From NCBI RefSeq assembly GCF_044324875.1, contig NZ_CP172185.1: a DNA stretch of 64,000 nt; one strand, given 5' to 3'. The translations under genes and the position numbers were made by a program. The stretch comes from Escherichia coli. Lineage in GTDB: Bacteria; Pseudomonadota; Gammaproteobacteria; Enterobacterales; Enterobacteriaceae. Below the pieces are notes generated by a model that saw nothing but the letters and a program-made list of their open reading frames with translations, was not told the origin of the DNA and did not search any database. Below are positions 4,304-35,587 of the stretch, in pieces. Position 1 is the stretch's first letter. The number at the start of each line of letters is the position of its first letter.

Positions 4304-5491
4304 TTATACAATTCGCGCAAAACCGGCGTCCAGATCGGCAATCAGATCGTCGACATCTTCCAGACCAATATGCAGGCGAATCAAGGTCCCGCTAAAATCG
4401 ATCTCGCCTTGCGGGCGAATGGCGGCGATATGTTCTGGTTGATTTGCCAGGATCAACGATTCATAACCGCCCCACGAGTAGGCCATGCTGAATAAACTGA
4501 AGTTATCCAGATAGTTCGCCAGCTCTTCATCATTGAGTTTTTTCTTAAGCACAAAGGAAAATAGCCCGCTGCTACCTGTAAAGTCTCGTTTCCAGAATTC
4601 GTGGCCTTTACTGCCAGGCAGAGCAGGGTGGTTAACTCGCGCTACTTGCGGATGTTCTGCCAGCCATTCAGCCACTTTCAGACTGCTTTCATGATGTTGA
4701 CGCAGGCGAACACCCAAAGTGCGCAGGCCACGGCTGGTTATATAGGCGGTATCGGCATCGACCATCTGGCCCATCAGATAGGCATTCTCCCGCAGCTGCT
4801 CCCAGCAACGGGCATTGCACACGGCAGTGCCAATCATCGCATCTGAATGCCCCACCAGATATTTGGTAGCGGCCTGAATGGAAACATCGATGCCAAAATC
4901 CAGCGCCTTAAACAGCACACCGGCCGCCCAGGTGTTATCGATCATAATGATGGCATCTGGCACCACATTGCGCACGGCGGCAACAATCGCCGGAACGTCG
5001 TGGACTTCCATGGTGATGGAGCCTGGGGATTCCAGAAACACGATTTTAGTGTTTGGCTGCACATGTTTAACGATATCTGCGCCAATCAGCGGATCAAACC
5101 ACGATGTCGTTACGCCCAGTTTGCTGAGGATTTTGCTACAGAAATCCTGACTCGGTTCATAGGCAGTGTTGGTCATTAACACATGATCGCCCTGTTCGAC
5201 AAAAGCAAGAATAGAATTAGCAACCGCCGCTGCCCCGCAGGGGAACAGCACGCAGCCTGCGCCACCTTCCAGTTCACACATCGCTTGTTGTAAGGAAAAA
5301 TGGGTTAACGTTCCGCGCCGCCCATAGAACAACTCGCCATTGGCGCGATTGCGTGTCGCGTGCTTTTTGGCTTCCACACTGTCAAAGACCAGCGAAGAAG
5401 CGCGCTGAATCACGCTATTTACCGCGCCGAGAGTGTATTTTTTGCTGCGTCCTGCATTCACCAGTTGAGTATCAAGCTTTTTGTCCGCCAT
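4304..5491 (-). CDS. metC: cystathionine beta-lyase (PLP-dependent)
   Basis: ORF 4304..5626; known N-terminus [20 protein letters not shown] is codon 46 of the track ORF, giving 395 aa. Confidence 0.93.
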
Positions 5492-5509
5492 GTCGGGATT
5501 CCTGTTTTT

Positions 5510-5525
5510 ATACGTCTGGATGTCT
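5510..5525. promoter_or_regulatory. candidate MetJ operator (tandem met-box-like octamers ATACGTCT GGATGTCT) just upstream of metC
   Basis: Two adjacent 8-mers resembling the AGACGTCT met box, 19-34 bp upstream of the metC ATG; metC is a MetJ regulon member. Confidence 0.3.
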
Positions 5526-5742
5526 AAACTAGCATGAATATTCTCGGGCGCATCCTGAAGAATTGGCATAAAGCAGAAAATTTTCGCAAATGGCGTGCTG
5601 GTGACTTTTTTACTGCGTAAACGCAAGGAAAAGAAAGCAAAGGTACGGCAGTATGCAAATAGTAATGAGAACGACTATCAATTCGACGTCGTTTTGATAT
5701 TATTATGCGCAGATTTTGTGACTTGCGTCCTGGAGATACACA

Positions 5743-6477
5743 GTGGGTAATAATTTAATGCAGACGGACCTTTCCGTCTGGGGTATGTATCAGCACGCCG
5801 ATATTGTCGTTAAGTGCGTGATGATTGGGCTTATTTTGGCCTCCGTAGTCACCTGGGCAATCTTCTTCAGTAAGAGCGTAGAGTTCTTCACTCAGAAGCG
5901 TCGCCTTAAGCGCGAGCAGCAACTGCTGGCTGAAGCGCGTTCCTTAAACCAGGCCAACGATATCGCCGCTGATTTTGGTAGCAAAAGCTTAAGCCTGCAT
6001 TTGCTCAATGAAGCGCAGAATGAGCTGGAACTGTCAGAAGGCAGCGACGATAACGAAGGTATTAAAGAACGTACCAGCTTCCGTCTGGAGCGTCGGGTCG
6101 CCGCAGTAGGTCGTCAAATGGGCCGCGGTAACGGTTATCTGGCAACCATCGGCGCGATTTCGCCGTTCGTTGGTCTGTTTGGTACGGTCTGGGGCATCAT
6201 GAACAGCTTTATTGGTATCGCGCAAACGCAGACCACTAACCTGGCAGTCGTTGCGCCGGGTATTGCAGAAGCTCTGTTAGCAACGGCAATCGGCCTCGTG
6301 GCAGCGATTCCGGCGGTCGTTATCTATAACGTATTTGCACGTCAGATTGGCGGCTTTAAAGCGATGCTGGGTGATGTCGCAGCGCAGGTATTGTTGCTGC
6401 AAAGCCGTGACCTGGATCTGGAAGCCAGCGCCGCTGCGCATCCGGTTCGTGTCGCACAAAAATTACGCGCAGGATAA
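5743..6477 (+). CDS. exbB: TonB-system energising protein ExbB
   Basis: 244-aa ORF MGNNLMQTDLSVWGMYQHADIVVKCVM..., GTG start as printed; matches ExbB. Confidence 0.95.
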   Translation: MGNNLMQTDLSVWGMYQHADIVVKCVMIGLILASVVTWAIFFSKSVEFFTQKRRLKREQQLLAEARSLNQANDIAADFGSKSLSLHLLNEAQNELELSEGSDDNEGIKERTSFRLERRVAAVGRQMGRGNGYLATIGAISPFVGLFGTVWGIMNSFIGIAQTQTTNLAVVAPGIAEALLATAIGLVAAIPAVVIYNVFARQIGGFKAMLGDVAAQVLLLQSRDLDLEASAAAHPVRVAQKLRAG

Positions 6478-20827: not shown

Positions 20828-21068
20828 ATTAATCAAAATATTCAATATTTATATATTCCAATATTTATTCATTTCATATGTGAATGTATTAACCAGTGGA
20901 ATACCTGTGTTTTGATTATTTCTAAAGGTTTTGAATGAATGCTTATTATCTGATACACAAGAAATAACACGCTTTTTATCGTTAAAAAATGATATTTCAC
21001 TTTGCCCACGCCGTTAAAGTCACTGATAATGCGTCCGTTCGTAAATTCAAAATGGCGTAATCTAATAT

Positions 21069-22568
21069 ATGCTAAATTTATTTGTTGGCCTTGATATATA
21101 CACGGGGCTTTTGTTATTACTTGCTCTGGCATTTGTGTTGTTCTACGAAGCAATCAATGGTTTTCATGATACGGCGAATGCGGTGGCAACCGTTATTTAT
21201 ACTCGTGCCATGCAACCACAACTTGCTGTGGTGATGGCGGCATTTTTTAACTTTTTTGGCGTATTGCTAGGCGGACTTAGCGTTGCCTATGCCATTGTCC
21301 ATATGTTGCCAACCGATTTGTTGCTGAATATGGGGTCAACTCACGGCCTGGCGATGGTCTTTTCCATGCTGCTGGCGGCGATTATCTGGAACCTGGGAAC
21401 GTGGTTCTTTGGTTTACCGGCCTCCAGTTCGCATACCTTGATTGGTGCGATTATCGGCATCGGTTTAACCAACGCGCTGTTAACCGGCTCATCGGTGATG
21501 GATGCGTTAAACCTGCGTGAAGTGACCAAAATTTTCTCCTCGCTGATTGTTTCCCCTATCGTCGGCCTGGTCATTGCGGGAGGTCTGATATTCCTGCTGC
21601 GCCGCTACTGGAGCGGGACGAAAAAGCGTGACCGTATTCACCGCATTCCGGAAGATCGCAAAAAGAAAAAAGGCAAACGTAAGCCACCATTCTGGACGCG
21701 TATTGCGCTGATTGTTTCCGCTGCGGGCGTGGCGTTTTCGCACGGCGCGAACGACGGGCAGAAAGGGATCGGCCTGGTGATGCTGGTACTGGTGGGGATT
21801 GCTCCTGCTGGTTTCGTCGTCAATATGAATGCGTCCGGCTATGAAATTACCCGTACCCGCGATGCCGTCACCAACTTTGAACACTATCTGCAACAGCATC
21901 CTGAACTGCCGCAGAAGTTAATTGCGATGGAACCTCCATTGCCTGCGGCATCGACTGATGGCACGCAAGTAACGGAGTTTCATTGTCATCCGGCAAATAC
22001 CTTTGATGCGATTGCGCGCGTTAAAACGATGTTGCCAGGTAATATGGAAAGCTACGAGCCGTTAAGCGTGAGTCAGCGCAGCCAGCTGCGCCGCATTATG
22101 CTGTGCATCTCTGATACCTCTGCGAAGCTGGCGAAACTGCCAGGCGTCAGTAAAGAAGATCAGAACCTGCTGAAAAAACTGCGCAGCGATATGTTAAGCA
22201 CCATTGAGTACGCTCCGGTGTGGATCATCATGGCGGTAGCACTGGCGCTCGGCATTGGTACCATGATTGGCTGGCGTCGTGTAGCGATGACCATCGGTGA
22301 GAAGATTGGTAAGCGCGGCATGACGTATGCGCAAGGGATGGCGGCGCAGATGACGGCGGCGGTATCTATCGGCCTTGCCAGTTATATTGGGATGCCTGTT
22401 TCCACAACACACGTCCTCTCGTCTGCGGTAGCAGGGACGATGGTGGTGGACGGCGGTGGGTTACAGCGTAAAACGGTAACCAGCATCCTGATGGCGTGGG
22501 TGTTTACTTTACCGGCGGCGATTTTTCTGTCTGGTGGGTTGTACTGGATAGCATTGCAGTTGATTTAA
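21069..22568 (+). CDS. pitB: low-affinity inorganic phosphate transporter (PiT family)
   Basis: 499-aa polytopic [51 protein letters not shown]... Confidence 0.9.
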
Positions 22569-22616: not shown

Positions 22617-23309
22617 CTAGTGATAACCACGCGCGGTCATAAAATCCGTAATCGCTTTTTCTGCATCAACCAGCACCTTTTCCAGTGGCTGATTGGCATC
22701 GATATCAACCAGTTGTGCACCACCAAAGGTTAACTGTGGCGTTATTGCAATCTTCCTCGCCAGCGATTCCCGTTTATGGTCGGGTTTACGCGCGCAGGCA
22801 ACTTCAAGGTCAACATTGAGTTTGATGACCAGATCAGGTTTATGGCTCGCCATCCAGTGAAACGCTTTACGTTCCTGGCTTGCCAGCCATGAGACAAACC
22901 GGCCGCCTTCAACGTTAGGCGGGAACACTGTACCATCGTAAGCGCCAGGAATTTGGTCCTGAGGATAACGGTCGGTTAGAACAATTAACCCGCGACGACG
23001 ACAGGCAAGCATATGACGAAAGCGCAGTAAGCGACGGGCGACAAACGCTGTAATTACCAGCGCCGGAACAGGGCCAGGCAATTTTTTTGCTGTTTTCACC
23101 TGATTTCGTTCAATTGTTTTATGTAAGGATTTTCCCATCAACGGTAATTTTGTCACTGCACGACCGACATTTCCGGCCTGTTTTCCTAAATGAACTCTTT
23201 CGGCTGCACCATATTTTTCGACAACGGTAATGAGATGTTCACACACCGTTGACTTGCCTGAACCATCGCTACCAATAACGGCAATTAATGGAGGTGTTAT
23301 TGACTGCAT
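22617..23309 (-). CDS. yghT: P-loop NTPase/kinase-like protein of unknown substrate
   Basis: 230-aa ORF; Walker [10 protein letters not shown]; shares DRYPQ and ARKPDH motifs with the two proteins below. Confidence 0.85.
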
Positions 23310-23482
23310 GAATATATCCTTTAATTTAAATATCCATTAAAAATATTTATTTGGTTAATATGTTTTTATGAAAGCGTAATTCAGGTCAATGTCACAATTA
23401 ACCATTGTCACAATAAGGTTGAACGGATATTCTGAGCACGGACCACGTAATATTCAATACATTATTTGCTGCCGGGTTTTTC

Positions 23483-24196
23483 GTGAATCAACGTAATATG
23501 TCAATAATTAATTCCACGCCAGTGCGTGTTATTGCCATTGTAGGATGTGATGGTTCAGGTAAATCGACCCTCACGGCAAGCCTGGTAAATGAACTGGCAG
23601 CAAGAATGCCAACAGAACACATTTATCTCGGGCAATCGTCCGGGCGAATTGGCGAATGGATTTCACAGCTCCCTGTTATTGGCGCACCTTTTGGGCGTTA
23701 TCTGCGAAGTAAAGCGGCACATGTGCACGAAAAGCCCTCAACACCGCCTGGCAATATTACTGCGCTGGTTATCTATCTGCTTTCCTGCTGGCGGGCGTAT
23801 AAGTTTCGCAAAATGTTGTGTAAAAGCCAGCAAGGCTATCTGCTCATCACCGACCGCTACCCGCAGGTTGAAGTGCCGGGTTTTCGCTTTGATGGCCCGC
23901 AATTGGCAAAAACCACGGGCGGTAACGGTTGGATAAAAATGTTAAGGCAGCGCGAGCTGAAGCTGTACCAATGGATGGCGTCTTATTTGCCCGTATTGTT
24001 GATTCGTCTTGGCATTGATGAACAAACGGCGTTTGCGCGTAAACCTGACCACCAACTGGCGGCGTTACAGGAAAAAATCGCCGTTACGCCGCAACTGACA
24101 TTCAATGGCGCAAAGATCCTTGAACTGGATGGTCGGCAACCAGCCGATGAAATTATGCAAGCGTCACTACGCGCAATTCACGCCGCGCTTTCCTGA
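23483..24196 (+). CDS. yghS: P-loop NTPase/kinase-like protein (paralogue of YghT/YghR)
   Basis: 237-aa ORF (GTG start as printed; alternative ATG 15 nt downstream at MSIINSTP); Walker A GCDGSGKST. Confidence 0.85.
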   Translation: MNQRNMSIINSTPVRVIAIVGCDGSGKSTLTASLVNELAARMPTEHIYLGQSSGRIGEWISQLPVIGAPFGRYLRSKAAHVHEKPSTPPGNITALVIYLLSCWRAYKFRKMLCKSQQGYLLITDRYPQVEVPGFRFDGPQLAKTTGGNGWIKMLRQRELKLYQWMASYLPVLLIRLGIDEQTAFARKPDHQLAALQEKIAVTPQLTFNGAKILELDGRQPADEIMQASLRAIHAALS

Positions 24197-24227
24197 TCAC
24201 CAAAATGGATAGGGGATGATTTAACGA

Positions 24228-24986
24228 ATGGATGCACTACAAACACAAACTGTTAATAGTACAACCGCGCCGCAGCCCAACTACATTCCGGGGCTGATTG
24301 CGGTGGTCGGGTGTGATGGCACCGGTAAATCCACGCTGACCACCGACCTGGTGAAATCGCTGCAACAACACTGGCAAACCGAGCGCCGCTATCTGGGGCT
24401 GCTCTCCGGCGAAGACGGCGACAAAATCAAACGATTGCCGTTGGTTGGCGTCTGGCTGGAACGGCGACTGGCGGCCAAATCCTCGAAAACCCAAAGCATG
24501 AAAACCAAATCTCCAGCGCTATGGGCGGCGGTGATTATGTACTGCTTCTCGCTGCGAAGAATGGCGAATCTACGCAAGGTTCAGCGACTGGCGCAAAGTG
24601 GCGTTCTGGTGGTCAGCGATCGCTTCCCGCAGGCTGAAATTTCGGGCTTTTATTATGACGGACCGGGGATCGGCGTCGAACGTGCGACCGGGAAAATCAG
24701 CATGTTTCTGGCGCAGCGCGAACGGCGTTTATACCAAAAAATGGCGCAATACCGTCCTGAATTAATCATTCGTTTGGGGATTGATATTGATACTGCCATC
24801 TCCCGCAAGCCTGACCATGACTATGCCGAGCTGCAGGACAAAATCGGCGTCATGTCGACGATTGGCTATAACGGCACAAAAATTCTTGAGATTGATTCCA
24901 GAGCGCCCTACAGCGAAGTGCTGGAACAGGCACAGAAGGCGGTTTCTCTGGTTGCCATCGTTTCTGACCGCCGAAGTTTAACTTAA
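24228..24986 (+). CDS. yghR: P-loop NTPase/kinase-like protein (paralogue of YghS/YghT)
   Basis: 252-aa ORF; Walker A GCDGTGKST, DRFPQ, SRKPDH. Confidence 0.85.
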   Translation: MDALQTQTVNSTTAPQPNYIPGLIAVVGCDGTGKSTLTTDLVKSLQQHWQTERRYLGLLSGEDGDKIKRLPLVGVWLERRLAAKSSKTQSMKTKSPALWAAVIMYCFSLRRMANLRKVQRLAQSGVLVVSDRFPQAEISGFYYDGPGIGVERATGKISMFLAQRERRLYQKMAQYRPELIIRLGIDIDTAISRKPDHDYAELQDKIGVMSTIGYNGTKILEIDSRAPYSEVLEQAQKAVSLVAIVSDRRSLT

Positions 24987-25031
24987 GGCTGGCGGGATAC
25001 TTTTTACTATCAACGATAAGGTCAGGCTGAA

Positions 25032-26381
25032 TTGGCGGGTTTTAACATCAAACATTGGTTTGCAGATGGCGCGTTTCGCACCATTATTCGCAATAGCGCC
25101 TGGTTAGGCTCCAGTAATGTCGTGAGCGCCTTGCTGGGTCTGTTGGCGCTCTCGTGTGCCGGTAAAGGGATGACGCCCGCCATGTTTGGCGTACTGGTGA
25201 TTGTGCAATCGTACGCCAAGTCGATCAGCGATTTTATTAAGTTTCAGACATGGCAGTTGGTGGTGCAGTACGGAACACCAGCATTAACCAACAATAATCC
25301 ACAGCAATTCCGCAATGTCGTCTCATTTTCCTTCTCGCTGGATATCGTCAGCGGCGCGGTGGCGATTGTCGGCGGCATTGCCTTACTCCCTTTTCTTTCC
25401 CATTCATTAGGTCTGGATGACCAAAGCTTTTGGCTGGCAGCGCTGTATTGCACGCTCATTCCTTCAATGGCTTCCTCCACGCCGACCGGCATTCTGCGTG
25501 CGGTAGATCGCTTCGACTTAATTGCTGTACAGCAGGCGACGAAACCTTTTCTGCGCGCAGCGGGGAGCGTCGTTGCCTGGTATTTTGACTTTGGTTTTGC
25601 GGGTTTTGTTATTGCCTGGTACGCCTCGAATCTTGTTGGCGGCACCATGTACTGGTGGTTTGCCGCACGTGAATTACGCCGCAGAAATATCCATAACGCG
25701 TTCAAATTGAATCTGTTTGAGTCTGCCCGACACATCAAAGGCGCGTGGAGTTTTGTCTGGTCAACCAACATTGCCCATTCCATCTGGTCGGCGCGTAATT
25801 CGTGCAGCACAGTGTTGGTGGGGATCGTGTTAGGACCCGCTGCCGCCGGGTTATTTAAAATCGCCATGACATTCTTCGACGCCGCCGGAACGCCAGCGGG
25901 TTTACTGGGCAAAAGTTTTTACCCAGAGGTGATGCGTTTAGATCCGCGTACCACCAGACCGTGGTTGTTAGGCGTGAAGTCAGGTTTACTGGCGGGCGGA
26001 ATCGGTATTCTGGTGGCGCTCGCGGTGTTGATCGTCGGCAAGCCGCTCATTTCGCTGGTGTTTGGCGTTAAGTATCTCGAAGCGTATGACCTGATTCAGG
26101 TGATGCTGGGCGCAATTGTGATCTCGATGCTGGGCTTCCCTCAGGAGTCATTGCTATTGATGGCGGGAAAACAGCGCGCTTTTCTCGTGGCGCAAACCAT
26201 CGCCTCAATCGGCTACATCGTATTGCTGTTCATGTTCTGTCATCTGTTTGGCGTGCTGGGGGCTGCATTTGCTTACTTCGGTGGGCAATGTCTGGATGTG
26301 GTGTTCTCGCTAATTCCGACCTTAAAGGCATTTTTTCAGCGCCATTCCTTGCTTTATAACTCAGCCGGAGAGAAATCCTGA
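25032..26381 (+). CDS. yghQ: Wzx/MurJ-like (MOP superfamily) polytopic membrane protein, putative lipid-linked substrate flippase
   Basis: Track ORF is 449 aa with a TTG start; first in-frame ATG about 46 codons in (MTPAMFGVLV). Longer than the 355-aa K-12 YghQ I remember. Start uncertain. Confidence 0.75.
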   Translation: MAGFNIKHWFADGAFRTIIRNSAWLGSSNVVSALLGLLALSCAGKGMTPAMFGVLVIVQSYAKSISDFIKFQTWQLVVQYGTPALTNNNPQQFRNVVSFSFSLDIVSGAVAIVGGIALLPFLSHSLGLDDQSFWLAALYCTLIPSMASSTPTGILRAVDRFDLIAVQQATKPFLRAAGSVVAWYFDFGFAGFVIAWYASNLVGGTMYWWFAARELRRRNIHNAFKLNLFESARHIKGAWSFVWSTNIAHSIWSARNSCSTVLVGIVLGPAAAGLFKIAMTFFDAAGTPAGLLGKSFYPEVMRLDPRTTRPWLLGVKSGLLAGGIGILVALAVLIVGKPLISLVFGVKYLEAYDLIQVMLGAIVISMLGFPQESLLLMAGKQRAFLVAQTIASIGYIVLLFMFCHLFGVLGAAFAYFGGQCLDVVFSLIPTLKAFFQRHSLLYNSAGEKS

Positions 26382-27217
26382 TGATGAGAAAATATTTCCC
26401 GCTTGAGGCGAGCGAGCGTCTATTTGTTGCGATTGAAGAAGATGATGTTGTTGATGCACAGGTCAGTTTGCCGCCGACTATCGCACTAAGTTGTACCACC
26501 GAAATCATCCATGATAATTACGCGTTATGCCTGCAATTCTGGCTCAATGGCGTCAATCGCCAGGAGTTACTGCGTTTAATATGCAAACAGGCCAAAGGCG
26601 ATGAGCTGACTGCTGATGAGCGCAAACAATTTAAATACATGCGAGCGCGCTACAAGCACCTGCGTTTTGCGCAACGGCTGTATTTAAAAAAGCATCAGGC
26701 CGGATTTTTATTCGGCAAAACGACCGTTTTTTTGGGGCGTTTTCAGGACGGCTTTCGTAACGGTAAGAAAAATATTGTGTCGTATTACGGCAACCTGTTA
26801 CGGGTTTATTTAAGCTCTCCGGTCTGGTCGTTGGTGAACTATTCATTACGCCATAGCCAGTTAGAAAGCGTAAGCGGTTTTATTGCCTATCGGCAAAAGC
26901 AAATGCATACCCTGAAAGAGATAATTGCCAAACCGCGACTAACTGGCAGGGAATTTCATGATGTGCGAAAAATCATCAGCCAGCAGGTTTCTTATTACGA
27001 CACCTTAAGATCGCTTGATCCTGAAAATAAAGAGGCGTTACTGATTTCCCGTTTTCTCGCCGCCATTAATGGTCTGATGGGGGATAAGCACGACGACATG
27101 GTGGCGGATGATATGGAAAACCGCCAGTCGTATGATGCACCGGTGGCGCTGGATAGCGATATTCGCCAGCGTTTAGAACTGCTGATTTCGCGTTTCCCAC
27201 TCTATCCGGAGCAATAA
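26381..27217 (+). CDS. hypothetical soluble protein, 278 aa, basic and predicted helical
   Basis: ATG overlaps yghQ stop (ATGA) with GGAGAGAAA Shine-Dalgarno; no family recognised. Confidence 0.6.
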   Translation: MMRKYFPLEASERLFVAIEEDDVVDAQVSLPPTIALSCTTEIIHDNYALCLQFWLNGVNRQELLRLICKQAKGDELTADERKQFKYMRARYKHLRFAQRLYLKKHQAGFLFGKTTVFLGRFQDGFRNGKKNIVSYYGNLLRVYLSSPVWSLVNYSLRHSQLESVSGFIAYRQKQMHTLKEIIAKPRLTGREFHDVRKIISQQVSYYDTLRSLDPENKEALLISRFLAAINGLMGDKHDDMVADDMENRQSYDAPVALDSDIRQRLELLISRFPLYPEQ

Positions 27218-27777
27218 TGCCATCTCGTTGGATTTTCGCTCTGATCATCGCACTCTTAGCGCCAGGCGCGGTGGCACACAATTTCGTCACTGGCAAAACG
27301 GTTACCCCTGTTTATATCCAGGAAGGCGGTGAGTTGCTTCTGAAAAGCGACGACGAAATTCACTACCAAAAGTGGAACAGCACACAGCTGGCGGGAAAAG
27401 TTCGCATTATTCAGTATATCGCCGGGCGTAAGTCGGCGAAGAAAAAGAACTCACTGTTAATTAAAGCGGTTGAAGCGGCAAACTTTCCGCAGGATCGTTT
27501 TCAGCCCACCACCATTGTGAACACCGATGATGCCATTTTTGGTACTGGCTATTTTGTCGTTGGCAAAATCGAAAAAAATAAACGCCGCTATCCGTGGGCG
27601 CAATTCGTTATTGACGGCAATGGACAGGGACGCGTTGCCTGGCGGTTGCCGGAGCAGAGTTCAACCATTCTGGTGCTGAATAAAGACGGGCAAATTCAGT
27701 GGGCAAAGGACGGCAGCCTGACGCCGGAAGAGGTAGATCATGTCATTGCGCTGGCGCAGAAACTGATCAATGAATAA
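27217..27777 (+). CDS. secreted/periplasmic protein, YtfJ-like, 186 aa
   Basis: N-terminal signal peptide MPSRWIFALIIALLAPGAVA; start overlaps previous stop (TAATG); resemblance to YtfJ is from memory. Confidence 0.55.
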   Translation: MPSRWIFALIIALLAPGAVAHNFVTGKTVTPVYIQEGGELLLKSDDEIHYQKWNSTQLAGKVRIIQYIAGRKSAKKKNSLLIKAVEAANFPQDRFQPTTIVNTDDAIFGTGYFVVGKIEKNKRRYPWAQFVIDGNGQGRVAWRLPEQSSTILVLNKDGQIQWAKDGSLTPEEVDHVIALAQKLINE

Positions 27778-27807
27778 AAAATTCAAAGGATTGAGGGCGT
27801 TAGCGAG

Positions 27808-28878
27808 ATGAAGCTGGTTGAACACTACATCATGCGTGGTACGCGCCGTCTGGTGTTGATTATCGTCGGTTTTCTGATCTTTATTTTCGCCAGCTACTCC
27901 GCACAGCGTTATCTGACCGAAGCGGCAAATGGGACATTAGCTCTTGATGTTGTGCTGGATATCGTTTTCTACAAAGTGCTGATTGCACTGGAGATGTTGT
28001 TACCTGTTGGACTGTATGTGTCAGTTGGCGTGACGCTAGGGCAGATGTATACCGATTCGGAAATTACCGCTATCTCTGCGGCGGGGGGCAGTCCGGGACG
28101 CTTGTACAAAGCCGTTCTTTATCTGGCGATACCGCTAAGTATTTTTGTCACCCTTCTGTCGATGTATGGTCGTCCGTGGGCTTATGCGCAGATTTATCAA
28201 CTGGAGCAACAGTCACAGTCGGAGCTGGATGTTCGCCAGTTGCGGGCAAAGAAATTTAACACTAACGATAACGGACGAATGATCCTTTCCCAGACGGTTG
28301 ATCAGGATAATAATCGCCTGACTGACGCGCTGATTTATACTTCTACTGCCAATCGAACCCGCATTTTCCGCGCCCGTTCGGTTGATGTGGTTGACCCATC
28401 TCCCGAGAAACCGACCGTTATGTTGCACAACGGGACAGCCTATCTTCTCGATCATCAGGGGCGTGACGACAACGAACAGATCTACCGTCATCTGCAATTA
28501 CATCTGAATCCGCTGGATCAAAGCCCTAACGTCAAACGCAAAGCGAAATCGGTCACGGAGCTGGCGCGCTCCGTCTTTCCAGCCGATCATGCCGAACTGC
28601 AATGGCGACAAAGCCGTGGCCTGACAGCATTGTTGATGGCGCTGCTGGCCATTTCATTAAGTCGGGTAAAACCGCGGCAAGGGCGATTTTCAACATTATT
28701 GCCACTGACGTTGCTGTTTATTGCCATTTTTTATGGCGGCGACGTCTGCCGTACGCTGGTGGCTAACGGCGCGATTCCCCTCATTCCTGGTTTGTGGTTA
28801 GTACCCGGACTCATGCTAATGGGCCTGCTGATGCTGGTCGCACGCGACTTCTCTTTGCTGCAGAAATTTTCCCGATGA
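27808..28878 (+). CDS. YjgP/YjgQ-family permease (LptF-like paralogue)
   Basis: 356-aa ORF with N-terminal TM cluster, long periplasmic middle region and C-terminal TM helices, the LptF/LptG architecture. Confidence 0.7.
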   Translation: MKLVEHYIMRGTRRLVLIIVGFLIFIFASYSAQRYLTEAANGTLALDVVLDIVFYKVLIALEMLLPVGLYVSVGVTLGQMYTDSEITAISAAGGSPGRLYKAVLYLAIPLSIFVTLLSMYGRPWAYAQIYQLEQQSQSELDVRQLRAKKFNTNDNGRMILSQTVDQDNNRLTDALIYTSTANRTRIFRARSVDVVDPSPEKPTVMLHNGTAYLLDHQGRDDNEQIYRHLQLHLNPLDQSPNVKRKAKSVTELARSVFPADHAELQWRQSRGLTALLMALLAISLSRVKPRQGRFSTLLPLTLLFIAIFYGGDVCRTLVANGAIPLIPGLWLVPGLMLMGLLMLVARDFSLLQKFSR

Positions 28879-29954
28879 ATGTTTTCAGTCGCTATTTAAT
28901 CCGTCATCTCTTTCTCGGTTTTGCCGCCGCCGCAGGGCTATTGCTGCCGCTTTTTACCACCTTCAACCTGATTAACGAACTGGATGATGTCAGCCCGGGT
29001 GGTTATCGCTGGACTCAGGCGGTGCTGGTGGTGCTGATGACCTTACCGCGCACACTGGTCGAACTTTCGCCGTTTATCGCATTATTGGGAGGGATTGTTG
29101 GCCTGGGGCAGTTATCGAAAAACAGTGAGCTTACCGCCATTCGCAGCACGGGGTTTTCTATCTTCCGTATTGCACTAGTGGCGCTGGTTGCCGGGATATT
29201 TTGGACTGTTTCGTTAGGCGCGATAGATGAGTGGGTGGCGTCGCCATTGCAGCAACAGGCGCTGCAAATCAAATCGACTGCCACCGCGTTGGGGGAGGAC
29301 GATGACATTACCGGCAATATGCTTTGGGCCAGGCGCGGTAATGAATTTGTGACGGTGAAATCGCTGAACGAGCAGGGCCAGCCTGTGGGCGTGGAGATAT
29401 TTCATTATCGCGACGATCTCTCGCTCGAATCCTACATTTTTGCACGCAGTGCCTCCATTGAAGACGACAAAACGTGGATCCTGCATGGTGTGAATCATAA
29501 AAAATGGTTGAATGGCAAAGAAACGCTGGAAACATCAGATAATCTTGCCTGGCAATCGGCCTTCACCAGTATGAATCTTGAAGAGTTATCGATGCCGGGA
29601 AATACTTTTTCTGTCCGTCAACTTAATCATTACATCCATTATTTGCAGGAAACTGGGCAACCCAGCAGCGAATACCGCCTTGCACTGTGGGAAAAACTGG
29701 GACAACCCATCCTGACCCTGGCGATGATTTTGCTGGCTGTGCCGTTTACCTTTAGTGCCCCGCGTTCGCCTGGGATGGGTAGCCGTCTCGCTGTAGGCGT
29801 CATCGTGGGCTTACTTACCTGGATCAGCTATCAAATCATGGTCAATCTGGGATTGCTATTTGCGTTGAACGCACCTGTTACCGCGCTCGGTTTACCGGTA
29901 GCGTTTGTGCTGGTGGCGTTGAGCCTGGTGTATTGGTATGACAGACAACATTAA
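28875..29954 (+). CDS. YjgP/YjgQ-family permease (LptG-like paralogue)
   Basis: Track ORF 28794..29954 is over-extended; start MNVFSRYLIRHLFLGF overlaps the upstream stop (ATGA), giving 359 aa with LptG-like topology. Confidence 0.7.
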   Translation: MNVFSRYLIRHLFLGFAAAAGLLLPLFTTFNLINELDDVSPGGYRWTQAVLVVLMTLPRTLVELSPFIALLGGIVGLGQLSKNSELTAIRSTGFSIFRIALVALVAGIFWTVSLGAIDEWVASPLQQQALQIKSTATALGEDDDITGNMLWARRGNEFVTVKSLNEQGQPVGVEIFHYRDDLSLESYIFARSASIEDDKTWILHGVNHKKWLNGKETLETSDNLAWQSAFTSMNLEELSMPGNTFSVRQLNHYIHYLQETGQPSSEYRLALWEKLGQPILTLAMILLAVPFTFSAPRSPGMGSRLAVGVIVGLLTWISYQIMVNLGLLFALNAPVTALGLPVAFVLVALSLVYWYDRQH

Positions 29955-29988
29955 ACCCGCCGTGGCGCAACACCACAGCGGGCTCACA

Positions 29989-31161
29989 TTACTGCTTCAG
30001 AGTAGCGAACGCTTGAATGATGGCATCAATTTGCTCACGACTGTGGGCAGCGTTTACGCTACAGCGCAGCAGCGTGATGCCTGCAGGCGCGGCAGGTGGC
30101 AGGATAAGATTCACATAAACGCCCAGCGAAATAAGCTCGCGCCAGATGCGTAAACCTTCCTCTTTCGAACCGATTATTACTGGCACTACCGGGCTAATAT
30201 GTGAACTTAACTCATAACCCAGTTTTTGCAGACCGTCATACAGATGGTTGGCATTATCCATCAGCTTTTGCCGCAACTCTGGTTGTGTAGCAATGGTTCT
30301 TAACGACGAGCGCACGGTCGCAATGCAGGACGGAGAAGGAGAGGCGGTAAAAATATACGGGCGGCTGCCGTAGCGCAGCACTTCCATCGCTTCCGAACCG
30401 ACAGCAAAACCGCCAATCGAGGCCAGACTTTTACTGAAAGTACCAACGATAATATCCACATCATCTTCAACGCCAACGGCTTCAGCCAGTCCGCGCCCCG
30501 TTGCGCCTAACACGCCAAACGAATGCGCTTCATCGACAATCAAATAACCACCGAGACGACGTTTGATATCAACAATTTCCGCCAGCGGCGCAACGTCACC
30601 GAGCATACTGTAGATGCCTTCAACGATGATAATCGCCTCTTTTGCCCGTTCACCGAGGCGAACCATGCGCCGTTCCAGATCTTTAGCATCGTTATGGCGG
30701 AAACGAATAATTTCCGCGCCACCGAGAGAACAGGCGTCATAAATACTGGCGTGGCTGTCGGCATCCAGTAACACCACGGCGTTATGGTCGGCAAGTGCGC
30801 TGATGACGCCTAAATTAGCGGTATAACCGGTTGAAAAAACGATAGCGGTAGGGCGATTAAAAAACTCGGCGATCTCTTTCTCTAACGCCAGATGCGGCGC
30901 ATAACTGCCGTTTGCCATACGAGAACCGGTGGTGCCGGTGCCTTGGGCCGCTAACGCTGCCTGACCTTCGGCGATGGCATCATGATTGAAGGTTAATCCG
31001 AGATAATTATTGGTCCCGGCCAGAATCACTTTTTTATTGCCGATCCGGCCTTCGGTGGCGGAATACACTTCATCAATACAGGTACCAAACGGCGTTAACC
31101 CGTTGTCACTAAATTGCAGTCGCTCGCCAGCAAGACGCGCATATTTATCGTATAGCCCCAT
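29989..31161 (-). CDS. PLP-dependent alpha-oxoamine synthase, serine-palmitoyltransferase-like
   Basis: 390 aa; motifs DEAHSFG and VGTFSKSLASIGGF (PLP lysine about residue 244, codon near 30430..30432). Confidence 0.8.
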   Translation of the reverse strand: MGLYDKYARLAGERLQFSDNGLTPFGTCIDEVYSATEGRIGNKKVILAGTNNYLGLTFNHDAIAEGQAALAAQGTGTTGSRMANGSYAPHLALEKEIAEFFNRPTAIVFSTGYTANLGVISALADHNAVVLLDADSHASIYDACSLGGAEIIRFRHNDAKDLERRMVRLGERAKEAIIIVEGIYSMLGDVAPLAEIVDIKRRLGGYLIVDEAHSFGVLGATGRGLAEAVGVEDDVDIIVGTFSKSLASIGGFAVGSEAMEVLRYGSRPYIFTASPSPSCIATVRSSLRTIATQPELRQKLMDNANHLYDGLQKLGYELSSHISPVVPVIIGSKEEGLRIWRELISLGVYVNLILPPAAPAGITLLRCSVNAAHSREQIDAIIQAFATLKQ

Positions 31162-31409
31162 TATTTATTCTCCAGCCATGGAAGTAGTGTTTCCATTAAT
31201 TGCGCAGGGGTTTTGACATCCAGCAGAATATTAATAGGAATGGAAATATCGAATCTGTCTTCCAGCATCATTAAGAGATCCATCACTTTGATCGACTCCA
31301 GGCCAAGATCGTTGACGAGATCGCTGTCGGGCTTAATTTCCACACCGTTTTCGACCAAATCCTGTAAACAGGAAAGGATGTAATCCATTACTATTTCACG
31401 ATTTACCAT
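31161..31409 (-). CDS. acyl carrier protein (dedicated, 82 aa)
   Basis: Small acidic protein with DLGLESIKVMDL (candidate phosphopantetheine serine); stop overlaps the downstream synthase start. Confidence 0.7.
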   Translation of the reverse strand: MVNREIVMDYILSCLQDLVENGVEIKPDSDLVNDLGLESIKVMDLLMMLEDRFDISIPINILLDVKTPAQLMETLLPWLENK

Positions 31410-31440
31410 AGAAACGTTAACACACCTTTAAACAAGACAA

Positions 31441-32355
31441 TCAAAATAGCCCGTTGCGTAATGCGTGTTCCAGGCTAATCCCGGGAAACCAATTAATATC
31501 TTCAGAAATACGGTTATTACTTGCTGACCAGTCGGCGTGGGTTAATTCACGGATTTTCGAGCGGGTCAGCATAGGTTCTTTACCTGCCAGGCGACTCAAC
31601 GTGGTACTGATATCCGCAAGGCAGGTGAGTACCGACAGAGGAATACCAACCATTCGAACGGAACCACAACGGGCGTCGGCGGCAAGCTGTCTTACGCGTT
31701 GCCAGTCATAGCCGCCGGCGACGCCATCGCATAATTCATAGGTTTGCGTCTGTACAGTTTCGGCGCTTAACCACTGCCCCACGGCTTGCGCGAAATCGGT
31801 GACGTGCAGGAAAGAGAGCTGTGTATCTGGCGCACCAAGTCGTGGCAGTAGGCCGCGCAGCATCCAGTCAAACAGCGGTTTTAACTCTTTATCGCCGGGA
31901 CCATACACGGCTGTCGGGCGAAAAATGCCCAGCGTAATTTCGTCAGCCATTGCGGTCAGTCGTTGTTCGGCGACGTGTTTGGAATTTGCGTACCAGGAGA
32001 GTTCGGGATGGCGCGCCGCCAGCGAAGAGATAAACAGAAAACGTTGGCAAAAGCCGCTCTCTTTTGCCGCTTGCATCAGGCGCAGGCTGCCGTCAACGTT
32101 ACAGCGGGTAAAAATCTCTTCTTTGTGTCCGCGCACTTGTCCGGCGCAATGGACCACCGCGCTGGCTCCGGCAACCAGTTCGCTAAGCGAATGTGTATCT
32201 TCCAGCGAACCGCGCACCCAGATGAGATTATCATTGACGTGAGCGCGGGCAGTACGCGTCAATGCGCGAACGTGAAAGCCGCGGGCGAGCAGGTTATCGA
32301 TAATATATTTACCGATAAACCCGGTAGCGCCCGTCACCGCGACAGTTTGATTCAT
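31441..32355 (-). CDS. NAD(P)-dependent epimerase/dehydratase-family (extended SDR) oxidoreductase, putative keto-reductase
   Basis: 304 aa; Rossmann VTGATGFIGKYI, catalytic YANSK; start overlaps upstream ligase stop by 4 nt. Confidence 0.75.
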   Translation of the reverse strand: MNQTVAVTGATGFIGKYIIDNLLARGFHVRALTRTARAHVNDNLIWVRGSLEDTHSLSELVAGASAVVHCAGQVRGHKEEIFTRCNVDGSLRLMQAAKESGFCQRFLFISSLAARHPELSWYANSKHVAEQRLTAMADEITLGIFRPTAVYGPGDKELKPLFDWMLRGLLPRLGAPDTQLSFLHVTDFAQAVGQWLSAETVQTQTYELCDGVAGGYDWQRVRQLAADARCGSVRMVGIPLSVLTCLADISTTLSRLAGKEPMLTRSKIRELTHADWSASNNRISEDINWFPGISLEHALRNGLF

Positions 32356-34073
32356 GCCAGGGATTCCTGCACATGAAGGCTTGCAGCATAAGCCTTCTGA
32401 TAGCGTTTTTTCGCTTCCGCACGGGCAGGCTTGCCGGAGGACGTTCGGGGAATACTGTGGGGCGGCAACAGATCGATAGCCGCGGTCACGCCAAATTCGC
32501 TTTGGATCCGTGCTGCCAGCGCGTGGATAAGCTGCCCGCGACGTTCTTCATCGCTGATCCGACACTGGATCTGCAAAATGATTTTTTCCTGGGCGGTAAC
32601 AAAAGCAATCGCATCGCCAGAATGAATTTCCGGTTCCTGTTCCGCAATATATTCAATATCTTGCGGCCAGATATTGCGGCCACGAATAATAATCAGATCT
32701 TTAATGCGTCCGGTGACATACAGATAACCGTCCAGCAGATAACCGAGGTCGCCGGTGTCTAACCAGCCCGTCGCGGCAATCTCGTCTTGTGAAATCTGGT
32801 CGCCAAAGTAACCGCTCATCAGGCTAGGGCCGGAGATGCAAATATGGCCTACCACACGTTCCGCGACAGGTATACCTGCTTCATTGCGGATTTCAATGCC
32901 ATGTTCCGGCAACGCTTTACCGCAGTTGACGAAAGTCGATACGGCGCGTGTTTCAGCATCCGGCGCGACGGCTTTGCCCTGATATTCGAGGATGTCGCGA
33001 TCCACTTCGTTAACCACAACCCCGGAAGCTTCATCAGAGAAGCTGACAGCCAGCGCATTTTCTGCCAGTCCGTAGCACGGCATGAACGTTTTATCGTCAA
33101 AGTTAACCTGACGAAAACATTCAGCGAATTGATGGAGTTGTTCTGCGGAGATCGGTTCTGCGCCAATACCAGCGACGCGCCAGCAGGAAAGATCCAGTTC
33201 AGCGAGATCTTTTTCATTCACGCGGCGCTGGCACAATTCATAGCCAAACGGCGGCGCAACGGAAACGGTGCCGCGATTTTTACTGATCAATTTAAGCCAT
33301 TGCAGAGGACGCATGGCAAAATCCTGAGTGCGCAAATAATCTACTGAGAGCTGCGTGGCGACGGGGGTCAGGAGAAAGCCGACCAGTCCCATATCATGGT
33401 AGAAAGGCAGCCAGGAGACGCAGCGGTCGCCAGGGCGTAATTTAATGCCATCGTGGCTTATAGCACGTAGATTAGCCATCACTTCGCGATGGGTGATAAT
33501 GACGCCACGGGGAAAACGGGTGCTGCCGGAGGTGTACTGGAGGTAGGCGATATCGTTCGGAACTGGACGCTGGAGTGCAACATCGGCTTCCGGTAATGCC
33601 TTAAACCAGGCGTGGCTTAAAACATGTAATTCGGGTTTGTTATGCGTCGCGGCATTGACCAGCGGTAACCACTCATCACCAGTGATAATGGCTGCGGGCT
33701 GGCAACTTGCCAGTAAACCCTGCAGTTTGGCGCTCCAGGAATCCCGCTGACCGACGCCCATTGGAATCGCCAACGGGACGGCGACTAAGCCGGCATACTG
33801 GCAGGAAAAAAAAGCCTCTACGAACCCGCTACTGGTTTCGGCAATCAGCGCCACGCGATCGCCTTTTTTCAGGTTCAGCGATAACAACCGCTTCGCACCA
33901 GCTTCGGCACGCGCTTTTAACGTCTGATATTCCAGTTGATCTTCAAGTTGGCAACGTCTGTCATAAAAATTCATTCCGGCGCTACTCAGAGCGGCGTAGT
34001 CCAAAGCATCAACCAGCGTTGGAAAATCGGCATAGCGCATAGGTAGGGAATGCGTAAAGATTTTATTAGACAT
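32352..34073 (-). CDS. fatty acyl-AMP ligase / acyl-ACP synthetase-type adenylating enzyme
   Basis: Track ORF 32352..34100 (582 aa); AMP-binding motif YTSGSTRFPRGV. Start uncertain (candidates at 34100, 34073, 34040); 34073 ATG chosen. Confidence 0.75.
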   Translation of the reverse strand: MSNKIFTHSLPMRYADFPTLVDALDYAALSSAGMNFYDRRCQLEDQLEYQTLKARAEAGAKRLLSLNLKKGDRVALIAETSSGFVEAFFSCQYAGLVAVPLAIPMGVGQRDSWSAKLQGLLASCQPAAIITGDEWLPLVNAATHNKPELHVLSHAWFKALPEADVALQRPVPNDIAYLQYTSGSTRFPRGVIITHREVMANLRAISHDGIKLRPGDRCVSWLPFYHDMGLVGFLLTPVATQLSVDYLRTQDFAMRPLQWLKLISKNRGTVSVAPPFGYELCQRRVNEKDLAELDLSCWRVAGIGAEPISAEQLHQFAECFRQVNFDDKTFMPCYGLAENALAVSFSDEASGVVVNEVDRDILEYQGKAVAPDAETRAVSTFVNCGKALPEHGIEIRNEAGIPVAERVVGHICISGPSLMSGYFGDQISQDEIAATGWLDTGDLGYLLDGYLYVTGRIKDLIIIRGRNIWPQDIEYIAEQEPEIHSGDAIAFVTAQEKIILQIQCRISDEERRGQLIHALAARIQSEFGVTAAIDLLPPHSIPRTSSGKPARAEAKKRYQKAYAASLHVQESLA

Positions 34074-34444
34074 ATACACCACGAAAAAATTGGATATCAA
34101 AAATAAAATGACAATAATGCGGTGGATTATATAGGCATAAAAGATAAATGAGATAGTATTTTCATCAGTGTGAAAATGAACATTGATTTAAATAATGAGT
34201 TTGAGTTTTTTTGTTTTTATTGTGAATGATATTTAATTTATGAATGTATTAAGAAGAAGCCTTGTCCGGTCGCCTTAAATCGACAAAAGGCATTGTGGCG
34301 CTTCTGTGTAGTCTCTGACCTTATCGTAATCATTAATAAATACTATTTATTCGTCGTTTGTATTCATTGGGTTGATTATTAAGGTGCCGTTCGTTGCTGT
34401 TGCAACCTGTTTGTCACCGTTAATTATTTGTTACCCACAGAACT
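34074..34444. promoter_or_regulatory. AT-rich divergent control region between the ligase operon and yghO
   Basis: About 370 bp non-coding and strongly AT-rich, between divergently oriented starts. Confidence 0.45.
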
Positions 34445-35587
34445 ATGGAATGCGATCTGCTGATGATTAAAATTGAAAAAGTAATTAATAAAAATGACCT
34501 TAAGGCATTTATCGCTTTTCCGTCATCACTTTATCCCGACGATCCAAACTGGATACCCCCTTTATTCATTGAACGCAACGAGCATTTGTCTGCGAAAAAT
34601 CCGGGGACGGACCATATCATCTGGCAGGCGTGGGTGGCAAAAAAAGCAGGGCAGATAGTTGGGCGTATTACCGCGCAAATCGATACCTTGCACCGCGAGC
34701 GTTACGGCAAAGATACCGGTCATTTCGGCATGATTGACGCCATTGATGATCCGCAGGTTTTTGCCGCGTTGTTTGGCGCAGCGGAAGCGTGGTTGAAGTC
34801 ACAAGGTGCAAGTAAGATCAGCGGTCCTTTCAGCCTGAATATCAATCAGGAAAGCGGATTACTGATTGAAGGTTTCGATACACCACCCTGTGCGATGATG
34901 CCACACGGCAAACCGTGGTATGCCGCGCATATTGAACAATTGGGTTATCACAAAGGCATTGATTTACTGGCGTGGTGGATGCAGCGAACCGATCTCACTT
35001 TCTCTCCGGCCCTAAAAAAACTGATGGATCAGGTGCGCAAAAAAGTGACCATTCGCTGCATCAATCGCCAGCGGTTTGCCGAAGAGATGCAGATCCTGCG
35101 TGAGATTTTCAACTCTGGCTGGCAGCATAACTGGGGATTTGTGCCGTTTACCGAACATGAGTTCGCGACTATGGGCGATCAGCTTAAGTACCTGGTGCCG
35201 GACGATATGATCTACATCGCCGAGATTGATTCTGCACCCTGTGCGTTTATTGTCGGCTTACCGAACATCAACGAGGCGATTGCCGATCTGAACGGATCGC
35301 TCTTTCCCTTCGGCTGGGCAAAATTGCTGTGGCGTTTAAAAGTCAGCGGTGTGCGAACTGCGCGAGTACCGCTGATGGGCGTGCGGGACGAGTATCAGTT
35401 TAGCCGCATCGGCCCGGTGATTGCGCTGTTATTGATTGAAGCCTTACGCGATCCGTTTGCCCGCCGGAAGATCGATGCGCTGGAAATGTCATGGATCCTC
35501 GAAACCAATATAGGCATGAATAACATGCTGGAACGCATTGGGGCGGAGCCGTACAAGCGTTACCGATTGTATGAAAAGCAGATTTAA
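34445..35587 (+). CDS. yghO: YghO-family protein, predicted acyl-CoA N-acyltransferase-like fold (intact here)
   Basis: 380-aa ORF MECDLLMIKIEKVINKNDLKAFIAFPSS... adjacent to glcC as yghO is in K-12; fold assignment is from memory. Confidence 0.65.
   Translation: MECDLLMIKIEKVINKNDLKAFIAFPSSLYPDDPNWIPPLFIERNEHLSAKNPGTDHIIWQAWVAKKAGQIVGRITAQIDTLHRERYGKDTGHFGMIDAIDDPQVFAALFGAAEAWLKSQGASKISGPFSLNINQESGLLIEGFDTPPCAMMPHGKPWYAAHIEQLGYHKGIDLLAWWMQRTDLTFSPALKKLMDQVRKKVTIRCINRQRFAEEMQILREIFNSGWQHNWGFVPFTEHEFATMGDQLKYLVPDDMIYIAEIDSAPCAFIVGLPNINEAIADLNGSLFPFGWAKLLWRLKVSGVRTARVPLMGVRDEYQFSRIGPVIALLLIEALRDPFARRKIDALEMSWILETNIGMNNMLERIGAEPYKRYRLYEKQI

Follow-up and report, generated by a model that had tools for sequence, protein, structure and literature searches.

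Classical back-to-back divergent sigma-70 promoters are among the described systems closest to the direct repeat between yghT and yghS of Escherichia coli. The likeness lies in two -35-like hexamers on opposite strands (TTGTCA and GTGACA), which have 5' ends 10 nt apart and each of which stands 17 nt from a -10 element, either in E. coli or in its relatives. The locus differs from the classical pairs in that only the yghS-side promoter is intact in E. coli, the starts being predicted here, and in that the two boxes share 11 of 12 nt, which is more than membership of the class requires. A second relative is the bidirectional promoter that arises from symmetry of the DNA sequence, as reportedly described by Warman et al. 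in 2021. At this locus the -10 element TATTCT of the yghS-side promoter, P1, overlaps a minus-strand CAGAAT with an offset of 1 nt, and the symmetric -35 boxes TTGTCA and TTGAAT flank this block at 17 nt. The difference is that the shared element is the -10 block and not the repeat. In addition, the likeness is read here from sequence, and in genomes beyond the E. coli clade a plus-strand promoter is the better fit to these blocks.

Two further systems involve proteins that bind over a -35 region. Class II activators and repressors, such as CRP or FNR at -41.5, occupy dyads in that position, and a dyad of 15-17 bp is present near -39/-40 at this locus in five genera. However, its half-sites fit no regulator consensus that was tested, and the dyad is in part a consequence of quasi-palindromic -35 cores. 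The pho box, too, is a direct repeat over the -35 position, in which each unit has TGTCA(C/T) as its core and then A/T. It differs from the present repeat in its phasing (11 nt versus 16 nt here), and at this locus the distance to the -10 element is normal and K-12 ChIP-seq has no peak. The repeat is best read, from its sequence and conservation, as a new, predicted instance of a familiar arrangement, that is, as ordinary promoter anatomy.

Locus and genes

The window is the whole 64,000-nt stretch of E. coli chromosomal DNA that was analyzed. The phosphate transporter gene pitB (21069-22568, plus strand) is followed by yghT (22617-23309, minus strand), which encodes a P-loop, Tmk-like protein. 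Beyond the yghT/yghS spacer are yghS (23483-24196), yghR (24228-24986) and yghQ (25032-26381), all on the plus strand. The gene yghS has a GTG start according to PGAP, the context of this start is conserved, and it is the first gene of a series that runs through yghR and yghQ to lptF/G-like genes. A chicken isolate is 100% identical over the 401 bases queried (23200-23600). After yghQ this isolate has a hypothetical gene, a YtfJ-family gene and lptF- and lptG-like genes; on the opposite strand are spt and the genes for an acyl carrier protein, an epimerase/dehydratase and a fatty acyl-AMP ligase, followed by yghO on the plus strand. This is the sphingolipid (dihydroceramide) locus of E. coli B/BL21, in which yghO encodes the N-acyltransferase (PMC9386255). 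That study covers the biosynthetic half of the locus and not the roles of yghT, yghS and yghR. In the window, the repeat is at the edge of a B-type sphingolipid locus (23483-35587) containing spt, acpR, epi, aasR, yghO (aca), yghQ, a YtfJ-like gene and the lptF/G-like genes. K-12 is without the middle of the locus as a result of an IS5-bounded deletion that truncates yghQ. Since K-12 retains the yghT-yghS spacer and the repeat in MG1655 is identical, the K-12 literature is applicable to it.

Several features of the genes themselves were observed. YghT, YghS and YghR are P-loop paralogues with 34-36% identity. They score 25-31 bits against dTMP kinase models that have cut-offs of 83-193 bits, and RefSeq, which names these genes "dTMP kinase", has likely over-annotated a P-loop kinase-like family. 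The annotated start of yghO is the ATG at 34445, giving 380 aa. Homologues have 374 aa and begin with MI(K/Q/S/H)I, which corresponds to the ATG at 34463; judged from these sequences, the annotated start is probably 18 nt too early. In Hafnia paralvei (4838-6337 of its locus), a pitB-type phosphate transporter gene adjoins yghT as in E. coli, and the YghT protein is 79% identical to its E. coli counterpart. In Serratia, yghT abuts spt, epi and aasR instead. The difference in neighbors between Hafnia and Serratia hints at horizontal transfer of a pitB-yghT-yghS segment.

The repeat and its chance level

The sequence AATGTCACAATTAACCATTGTCACAATAA is a direct match to positions 23388-23416. It contains two exact plus-strand copies of TGTCACAAT, copy 1 at 23390-23398 and copy 2 at 23406-23414, which are 16 nt apart from start to start and are the sole two matches on both strands of the 64-kb window. 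Copy 1 extends to CAaTGTCACAAT / CAATGTCACAAT at 23387-23398 and copy 2 to CAtTGTCACAAT / CATTGTCACAAT at 23403-23414. After this extension the identity is 11 of 12 positions (CAaTGTCACAAT versus CAtTGTCACAAT). Each copy is nearly palindromic, with the form ATTGT-C-ACAAT. The spacer between the yghT ATG (23309, minus strand) and the yghS GTG (23483, plus strand) is 173 bp long with a G+C content of 30.1%, against 51.8% for the whole window. The earlier note, which had reported the repeat, its coordinates, its 16-nt spacing and its AT-rich setting in a divergent promoter region, was accurate on each of these points.

The expected number of matches to TGTCACAAT per window is 0.70, and two or more matches occurred in 9 of 100 shuffles. 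Close 9-mer repeats (non-trivial, within 30 nt) are found at 11 loci in the window versus about 6 in shuffles of local composition. The repeat is real, yet by itself it is unsurprising, and chance suffices to produce it. Since its statistical significance is weak, any case for a function must rest on conservation. A chance-type close 9-mer repeat is present in the gss-pitB spacer, where CAATATTTA occurs twice, 16 nt apart, at 20843-20867. The yghT/yghS spacer also has a second direct repeat with 16-nt spacing, ATATCC(T/A)TTAA at 23314-23324 and 23330-23340.

Conservation within Escherichia

The 36 nt that bear the repeat are identical in 4515 of 4684 E. coli genomes (96.4%), versus 3979 of 4691 (84.8%) for an adjacent 36-nt control; with a single control and related genomes, this comparison is only suggestive. 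The repeat is nearly fixed in Escherichia. The sampled E. coli variants are just outside the copies, and in E. whittamii copy 1 is TGCCACAAT. One E. coli genome (PCP06171) has an IS1 element that abuts copy 1 at the equivalent of about position 23386 in place of the yghT side; the insertion leaves the two copies and the promoter blocks of yghS intact.

Conservation across genera

A scan of one genome per species gave 79 loci with relatives of YghT, about 45 of which have a divergent yghS-yghR upstream. The comparison took in about 40 orthologous spacers of other Enterobacterales. Only the TGTCAC-type cores are conserved across these spacers, and the full 9-mers are not. Alignment of the orthologous spacers confines the identity of 9-12 nt to Escherichia. 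Outside this genus the 3' AAT of copy 2 becomes AAC, GGC or GAC, and the TGT of copy 1 becomes ACG, GCC or CTG.

Other parts of the two copies are strongly retained. Within the E. coli clade, all 5 genera have the sequence ATTGTCAC (23404-23411) unchanged, and it ranks with the longest stretches of full conservation in the spacer. The ACAAT(TA) of copy 1 is nearly invariant in Citrobacter amalonaticus, Hafnia paralvei, three Pseudocitrobacter and Shimwellia, and the E. coli clade also keeps AATTARYCAT between the two boxes. The core of copy 1 is degenerate in Hafnia, C. amalonaticus and Pseudocitrobacter; it aligns with GTCAC in Shimwellia and with (A/T)GTCGC in Sodalis-like lineages. In Sodalis sp. 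dw_96 and in two Enterobacterales MAGs, copy 1 corresponds to GTCGC or GTTGC. The distance between the two cores in Sodalis sp. dw_96 is 16 nt, as it is in E. coli, and both MAG sequences align with a gap of 1 nt between the cores. The proposal that the left half of copy 1 is specific to Escherichia was dropped, as GTCGC is conserved there in the Sodalis-like lineages.

Among C. amalonaticus, Hafnia, Pseudocitrobacter and Shimwellia, the half of the spacer nearer yghT can hardly be aligned, and the surviving blocks are on the yghS side. The region upstream of yghO, which serves as a baseline for divergence of an unconstrained spacer, is unalignable among the same genera. Because this is so in the same genomes, the blocks that the yghT/yghS spacer retains reflect selection and not recent common ancestry. 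The cores are conserved across genera while the rest of the spacer has diverged, and therefore the element is under constraint. These alignments indicate that the repeat genuinely belongs to the divergent promoter region and is constrained there. The earlier note had proposed alignments across E. coli and Shigella as a check; in the genomes compared here, the cores are kept across genera and the repeat is near-fixed in E. coli, but the full 9-mers are an Escherichia feature.

Predicted promoters on the yghS side

A consensus scan of 23200-23600 gives exactly one promoter-like site, TTGTCA-17-TATTCT on the plus strand. The predicted P1 -35 box, TTGTCA (23405-23410), is inside copy 2 and was identified by the consensus scan, a position weight matrix (PWM) and its position across genera. 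The predicted -10 box, TATTCT (23428-23433), begins after a gap of 17 nt and was identified by the consensus scan and the PWM. The two hexamers match the sigma-70 consensus at 5 of 6 and 4 of 6 positions, respectively, the latter including T1, A2 and T6. With approximate sigma-70 matrices, P1 is the top match in 23290-23500 (11.0 bits, about the 95th percentile of composition-matched shuffles). Transcription from P1 would start near 23440, or about 3,134,000 in NC_000913.3, where K-12 coordinates equal 3,157,440 minus those of the window.

The P1 pair is at -78/-55 from the yghS start codon in Escherichia, Pseudocitrobacter and Hafnia, and is shifted by 1-5 nt in C. amalonaticus, Shimwellia and Sodalis. 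It was found in 11 genomes of 6 genera, and in Sodalis, while the surrounding spacer diverged. The variants of the -10 box (TATCCT, TATCTT and TATGTT) keep T1, A2 and T6. Retention of the pair at a near-constant distance from the yghS start suggests that copy 2 contains the P1 -35 box.

A second plus-strand promoter, P2 (TTGAAC-16-TACAAT, 10.9 bits), is present in at least 9 lineages with its -10 box at -32 to -34 from the start codon. The -35 box of P2 overlaps the -10 box of P1. In E. coli the P2 homologue, as read from alignments, is decayed to CTGAGC-15-TTCAAT (23432-23458, plus strand). Since the P1 -10 block can also be read as the P2 -35 box or as a minus-strand -10 box, conservation does not single out P1.

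In published work, yghS is bound by H-NS and its expression rises 3.1-fold on overproduction of SlyA (PMC5797941). The association with H-NS and the response to SlyA fit a promoter that is silenced yet intact. Elsewhere in the spacer, TTATTTGGTTAA (23347-23358) fits the relaxed SlyA site TTAN6TAA, in the upstream region of this SlyA-responsive gene (PMC5797941).

Predicted promoters on the yghT side

In 14 lineages the yghT strand carries an extended -10 promoter of the form [G/A]CGACN-17-TG[G/A/T]TA[T/C]ATT. The end of its -10 box is constantly 29-31 nt from the yghT ATG in these lineages. Its -35 box reads (A/T)GTCGC on the plus strand of the window and is, in the alignment, the column-for-column homologue of the copy 1 core. 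The reverse complement of that core in E. coli is GTGACA (23390-23395, minus strand), which is -35-like and matches TTGACA at 5 of 6 positions. The yghT-strand -10 box that would follow copy 1 is decayed in E. coli, where the best pair, GTGACA-16-TTTCAT, scores only 3.7 bits. Because the -10 partner is decayed, copy 1 of E. coli may be weak or a mere relic. Hafnia and C. amalonaticus have a minus-strand promoter of 10 bits whose -35 box is the reverse complement of copy 2, also GTGACA, which suggests that the core is usable as a -35 box in both directions.

An alternative minus-strand promoter is predicted at 23429-23457, with TTGAAT (23457 to 23452) separated by 17 nt from CAGAAT (23434 to 23429) and a PWM score of 9.1-9.6 bits. 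It is kept in Pseudocitrobacter and Hafnia, and its -10 box overlaps that of P1 by symmetry. If this promoter is used, both copies of the repeat are inside a yghT leader of about 113 nt. This raises the question of whether the repeat acts at the level of RNA: in the E. coli clade, TTGAAT-17-CAGAAT would drive yghT from a start near 23422, and the two copies of AUUGUGACA in the 113-nt leader would form a structure or a protein-binding site. The strength and retention of the minus-strand promoter argue for such a leader, as does the decay in E. coli of the proximal yghT promoter of other lineages. The leader also has two GGA motifs 16 nt apart, one of which is the ribosome-binding site. However, the folding of the leader is at the level of shuffled sequence (z = 0.13; 107 of 200 shuffles were as stable), and in genomes beyond the E. 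coli clade the plus-strand P2 is by far the better reading of these blocks. For a structured RNA, the folding z-scores were 0.13 and 1.49, and a search of Rfam gave no matching family. A role of the repeat in RNA is accordingly considered very improbable.

The GGA motifs are a feature of the second repeat. On the yghT mRNA strand, ATATCC(T/A)TTAA yields AAUGGAUAU and AAAGGAUAU, the second of which is the ribosome-binding site. As a sequence layout, a leader with two GGA motifs is typical of CsrA targets.

Proposed back-to-back -35 boxes

The two copies would be the -35 regions of compact back-to-back divergent sigma-70 promoters and not a dedicated regulator site, a reading that the promoter matches and alignments make somewhat better than an even call. 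TTGTCA of copy 2 together with TATTCT would form P1 and direct transcription of yghS-yghR-yghQ and of the lptF/G-like genes beyond them. Copy 1, taken as GTGACA from 23395 to 23390, would have the yghT promoter's -35 box as its ancestor. The ancestral layout would have been a compact pair of divergent promoters placed back to back. The 5' ends of the oppositely oriented boxes are 10 nt apart in both E. coli and Sodalis sp. dw_96. From the sequence matches, the spacings and the cross-genus conservation, we infer both the use of the boxes by RNA polymerase and the positions of the transcription starts. The top-strand TTGTCA and the bottom-strand GTGACA/GCGACA look like a direct repeat because TGTCAC is nearly its own reverse complement.

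The divergent -35 boxes account for the position of the repeat, its spacing, the conserved cores and the unconserved outer parts of the 9-mers. However, the -35 reading covers only 6-7 nt, whereas 11 of 12 nt are identical in E. coli. The flanking match of 5 of 6 positions has a chance of about 1% in DNA of 70% A+T, by our own post hoc estimate. The flanking identity in Escherichia and the conserved AATTARYCAT are left unexplained by the divergent -35 boxes.

A possible operator

The sequence that the -35 boxes leave unexplained gives room for an operator. A DNA-binding protein might overlap the boxes, either on two ATTGT-C-ACAAT palindromes or as a dimer on one dyad; such an operator is possible but rather unlikely. 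In the dyad form, (G/C)ACAAT-N5-ATTGTC lies between the -35 boxes at about -39/-40 from both starts, and the protein would repress by occlusion or act as a class II activator. In the window the dyad ACAAT-N5-ATTGT (23394-23408) has a single match, to which copy 1 contributes its 3' half and copy 2 its 5' half. Its center at 23401 is at about -39 from the predicted P1 start. The dyad is perfect and longer in C. amalonaticus (GACAAT-N5-ATTGTC), and it is present with at most 1-2 mismatches in 6 non-Escherichia genomes, versus 0.02-0.8 expected.

This retention of the dyad in six genomes speaks for an operator, together with an identity of 11 of 12 nt that exceeds the need of two -35 boxes and with conservation beyond the hexamers, at TCRTTGTCACRRC and at AATTA between the boxes. 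The segment with the repeat is also about four-fold less polymorphic than the control in about 4,700 E. coli genomes, as measured with a single control and related genomes. A look-alike, TGTCACCGTTAATTATTTGTTAC, is found in the same locus 29-51 nt before the yghO start. However, this look-alike was noted post hoc, the window has 2 such matches versus 0.9 expected, and C. amalonaticus and Pseudocitrobacter lack it upstream of yghO. Copies of the motif elsewhere in the window do not exceed chance. The full copies are unconserved across genera, and copy 1 already differs in E. whittamii.

A search for a regulator gene in or beside the locus of E. coli, Hafnia and Serratia found none; a MocR-type gene beyond pitB is present in Hafnia only. 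In open-access full text, the sole transcription factor peak placed in the spacer is a weak FlhDC SELEX peak, and its assigned box is inside yghT. The literature searched holds no record of a specific factor on the repeat motif, and a search with the motif string returned unrelated matches only. The interpretation of the repeat in the earlier note, a tandem operator for a regulator of the kinase and flippase genes, is not borne out, given that the full copies are unconserved, the conserved parts are explained by -35 boxes, and neither a regulator gene nor a factor in the literature was found. In Escherichia and its nearest relatives, a dimeric factor on the dyad or on the two palindromes could jointly switch yghT and the yghS-yghR-yghQ-lptF/G-like operon; judged by the same evidence, this is unlikely.

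The region upstream of yghO has its own layout. In the sequence TGTCACCGTTAATTATTTGTTAC (34412-34434), TTAA lies between two TGTYAC cores that are spaced by 17 nt, and a usable -10 partner is absent.

Known regulators

That the copies are half-sites of a known global regulator, PhoB or CRP, is exceedingly improbable. The attraction of PhoB is that TGTCAC followed by A/T resembles a pho-box unit and that the phosphate transporter gene pitB adjoins the spacer. The consensus of the pho-box unit is CTGTCATA(A/T)A(A/T), and the copies read xTGTCACAAT(T/A) against this unit. However, the phasing of the copies is 16 nt, while PhoB dimers need 11 nt. The -35 hexamer TTGTCA is 17 nt from the -10 box, versus 10-11 nt in pho promoters, and the gap from TTGTCAC to the -10 box is 16 nt, whereas a pho box, with two 7-nt units in direct repeat, ends about 10 nt before that box. 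The best match in the spacer to a full 18-bp pho box has 6 mismatches and is off the repeat. The K-12 PhoB ChIP-seq table has no ygh site, and pitB was judged not to be a PhoB target (PMC10294691). The phasing of 16 nt, a -35/-10 geometry that is normal and the lack of a ygh site in that table (PMC10294691) led to the rejection of a PhoB pho box.

CRP is suggested by the TCACA in each copy, and a CRP site mapped at another genomic position has ATGTCACAATT as its right half (PMC12871828). Against the CRP site TGTGA-N6-TCACA, one half-site is perfect and its partner matches at 2 of 5 positions; the best site has 3 mismatches in 10, and this candidate was also rejected. A Fur box matches at only 11 of 19 positions. 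The best spacer matches to a DnaA box and to the SlyA consensus are elsewhere, near 23347-23358, and a convincing match to the H-NS high-affinity motif is absent from the repeat. Resemblances to sites of sigma-E, ArcA, CusR and MlrA, to a LacI half-site and to RepE iterons each fail, presumably, on the spacing or on the partner half-site.

Implications

The repeat is an example of how a quasi-palindromic core makes two opposite -35 boxes mimic a tandem operator. A specific factor, should one bind, would offer the first lead on the timing of expression of this E. coli locus; the present evidence requires none. If that factor is dimeric, as considered above, the genes switched together would be the half of the E. 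coli sphingolipid locus that serves modification and export. Read as divergent -35 boxes, the repeat provides a concrete, predicted promoter map for yghT and the yghS operon. These are uncharacterised, H-NS-silenced genes, and the practical value of the map is modest; the sphingolipid locus to which it applies is carried by E. coli B and most non-K-12 strains.
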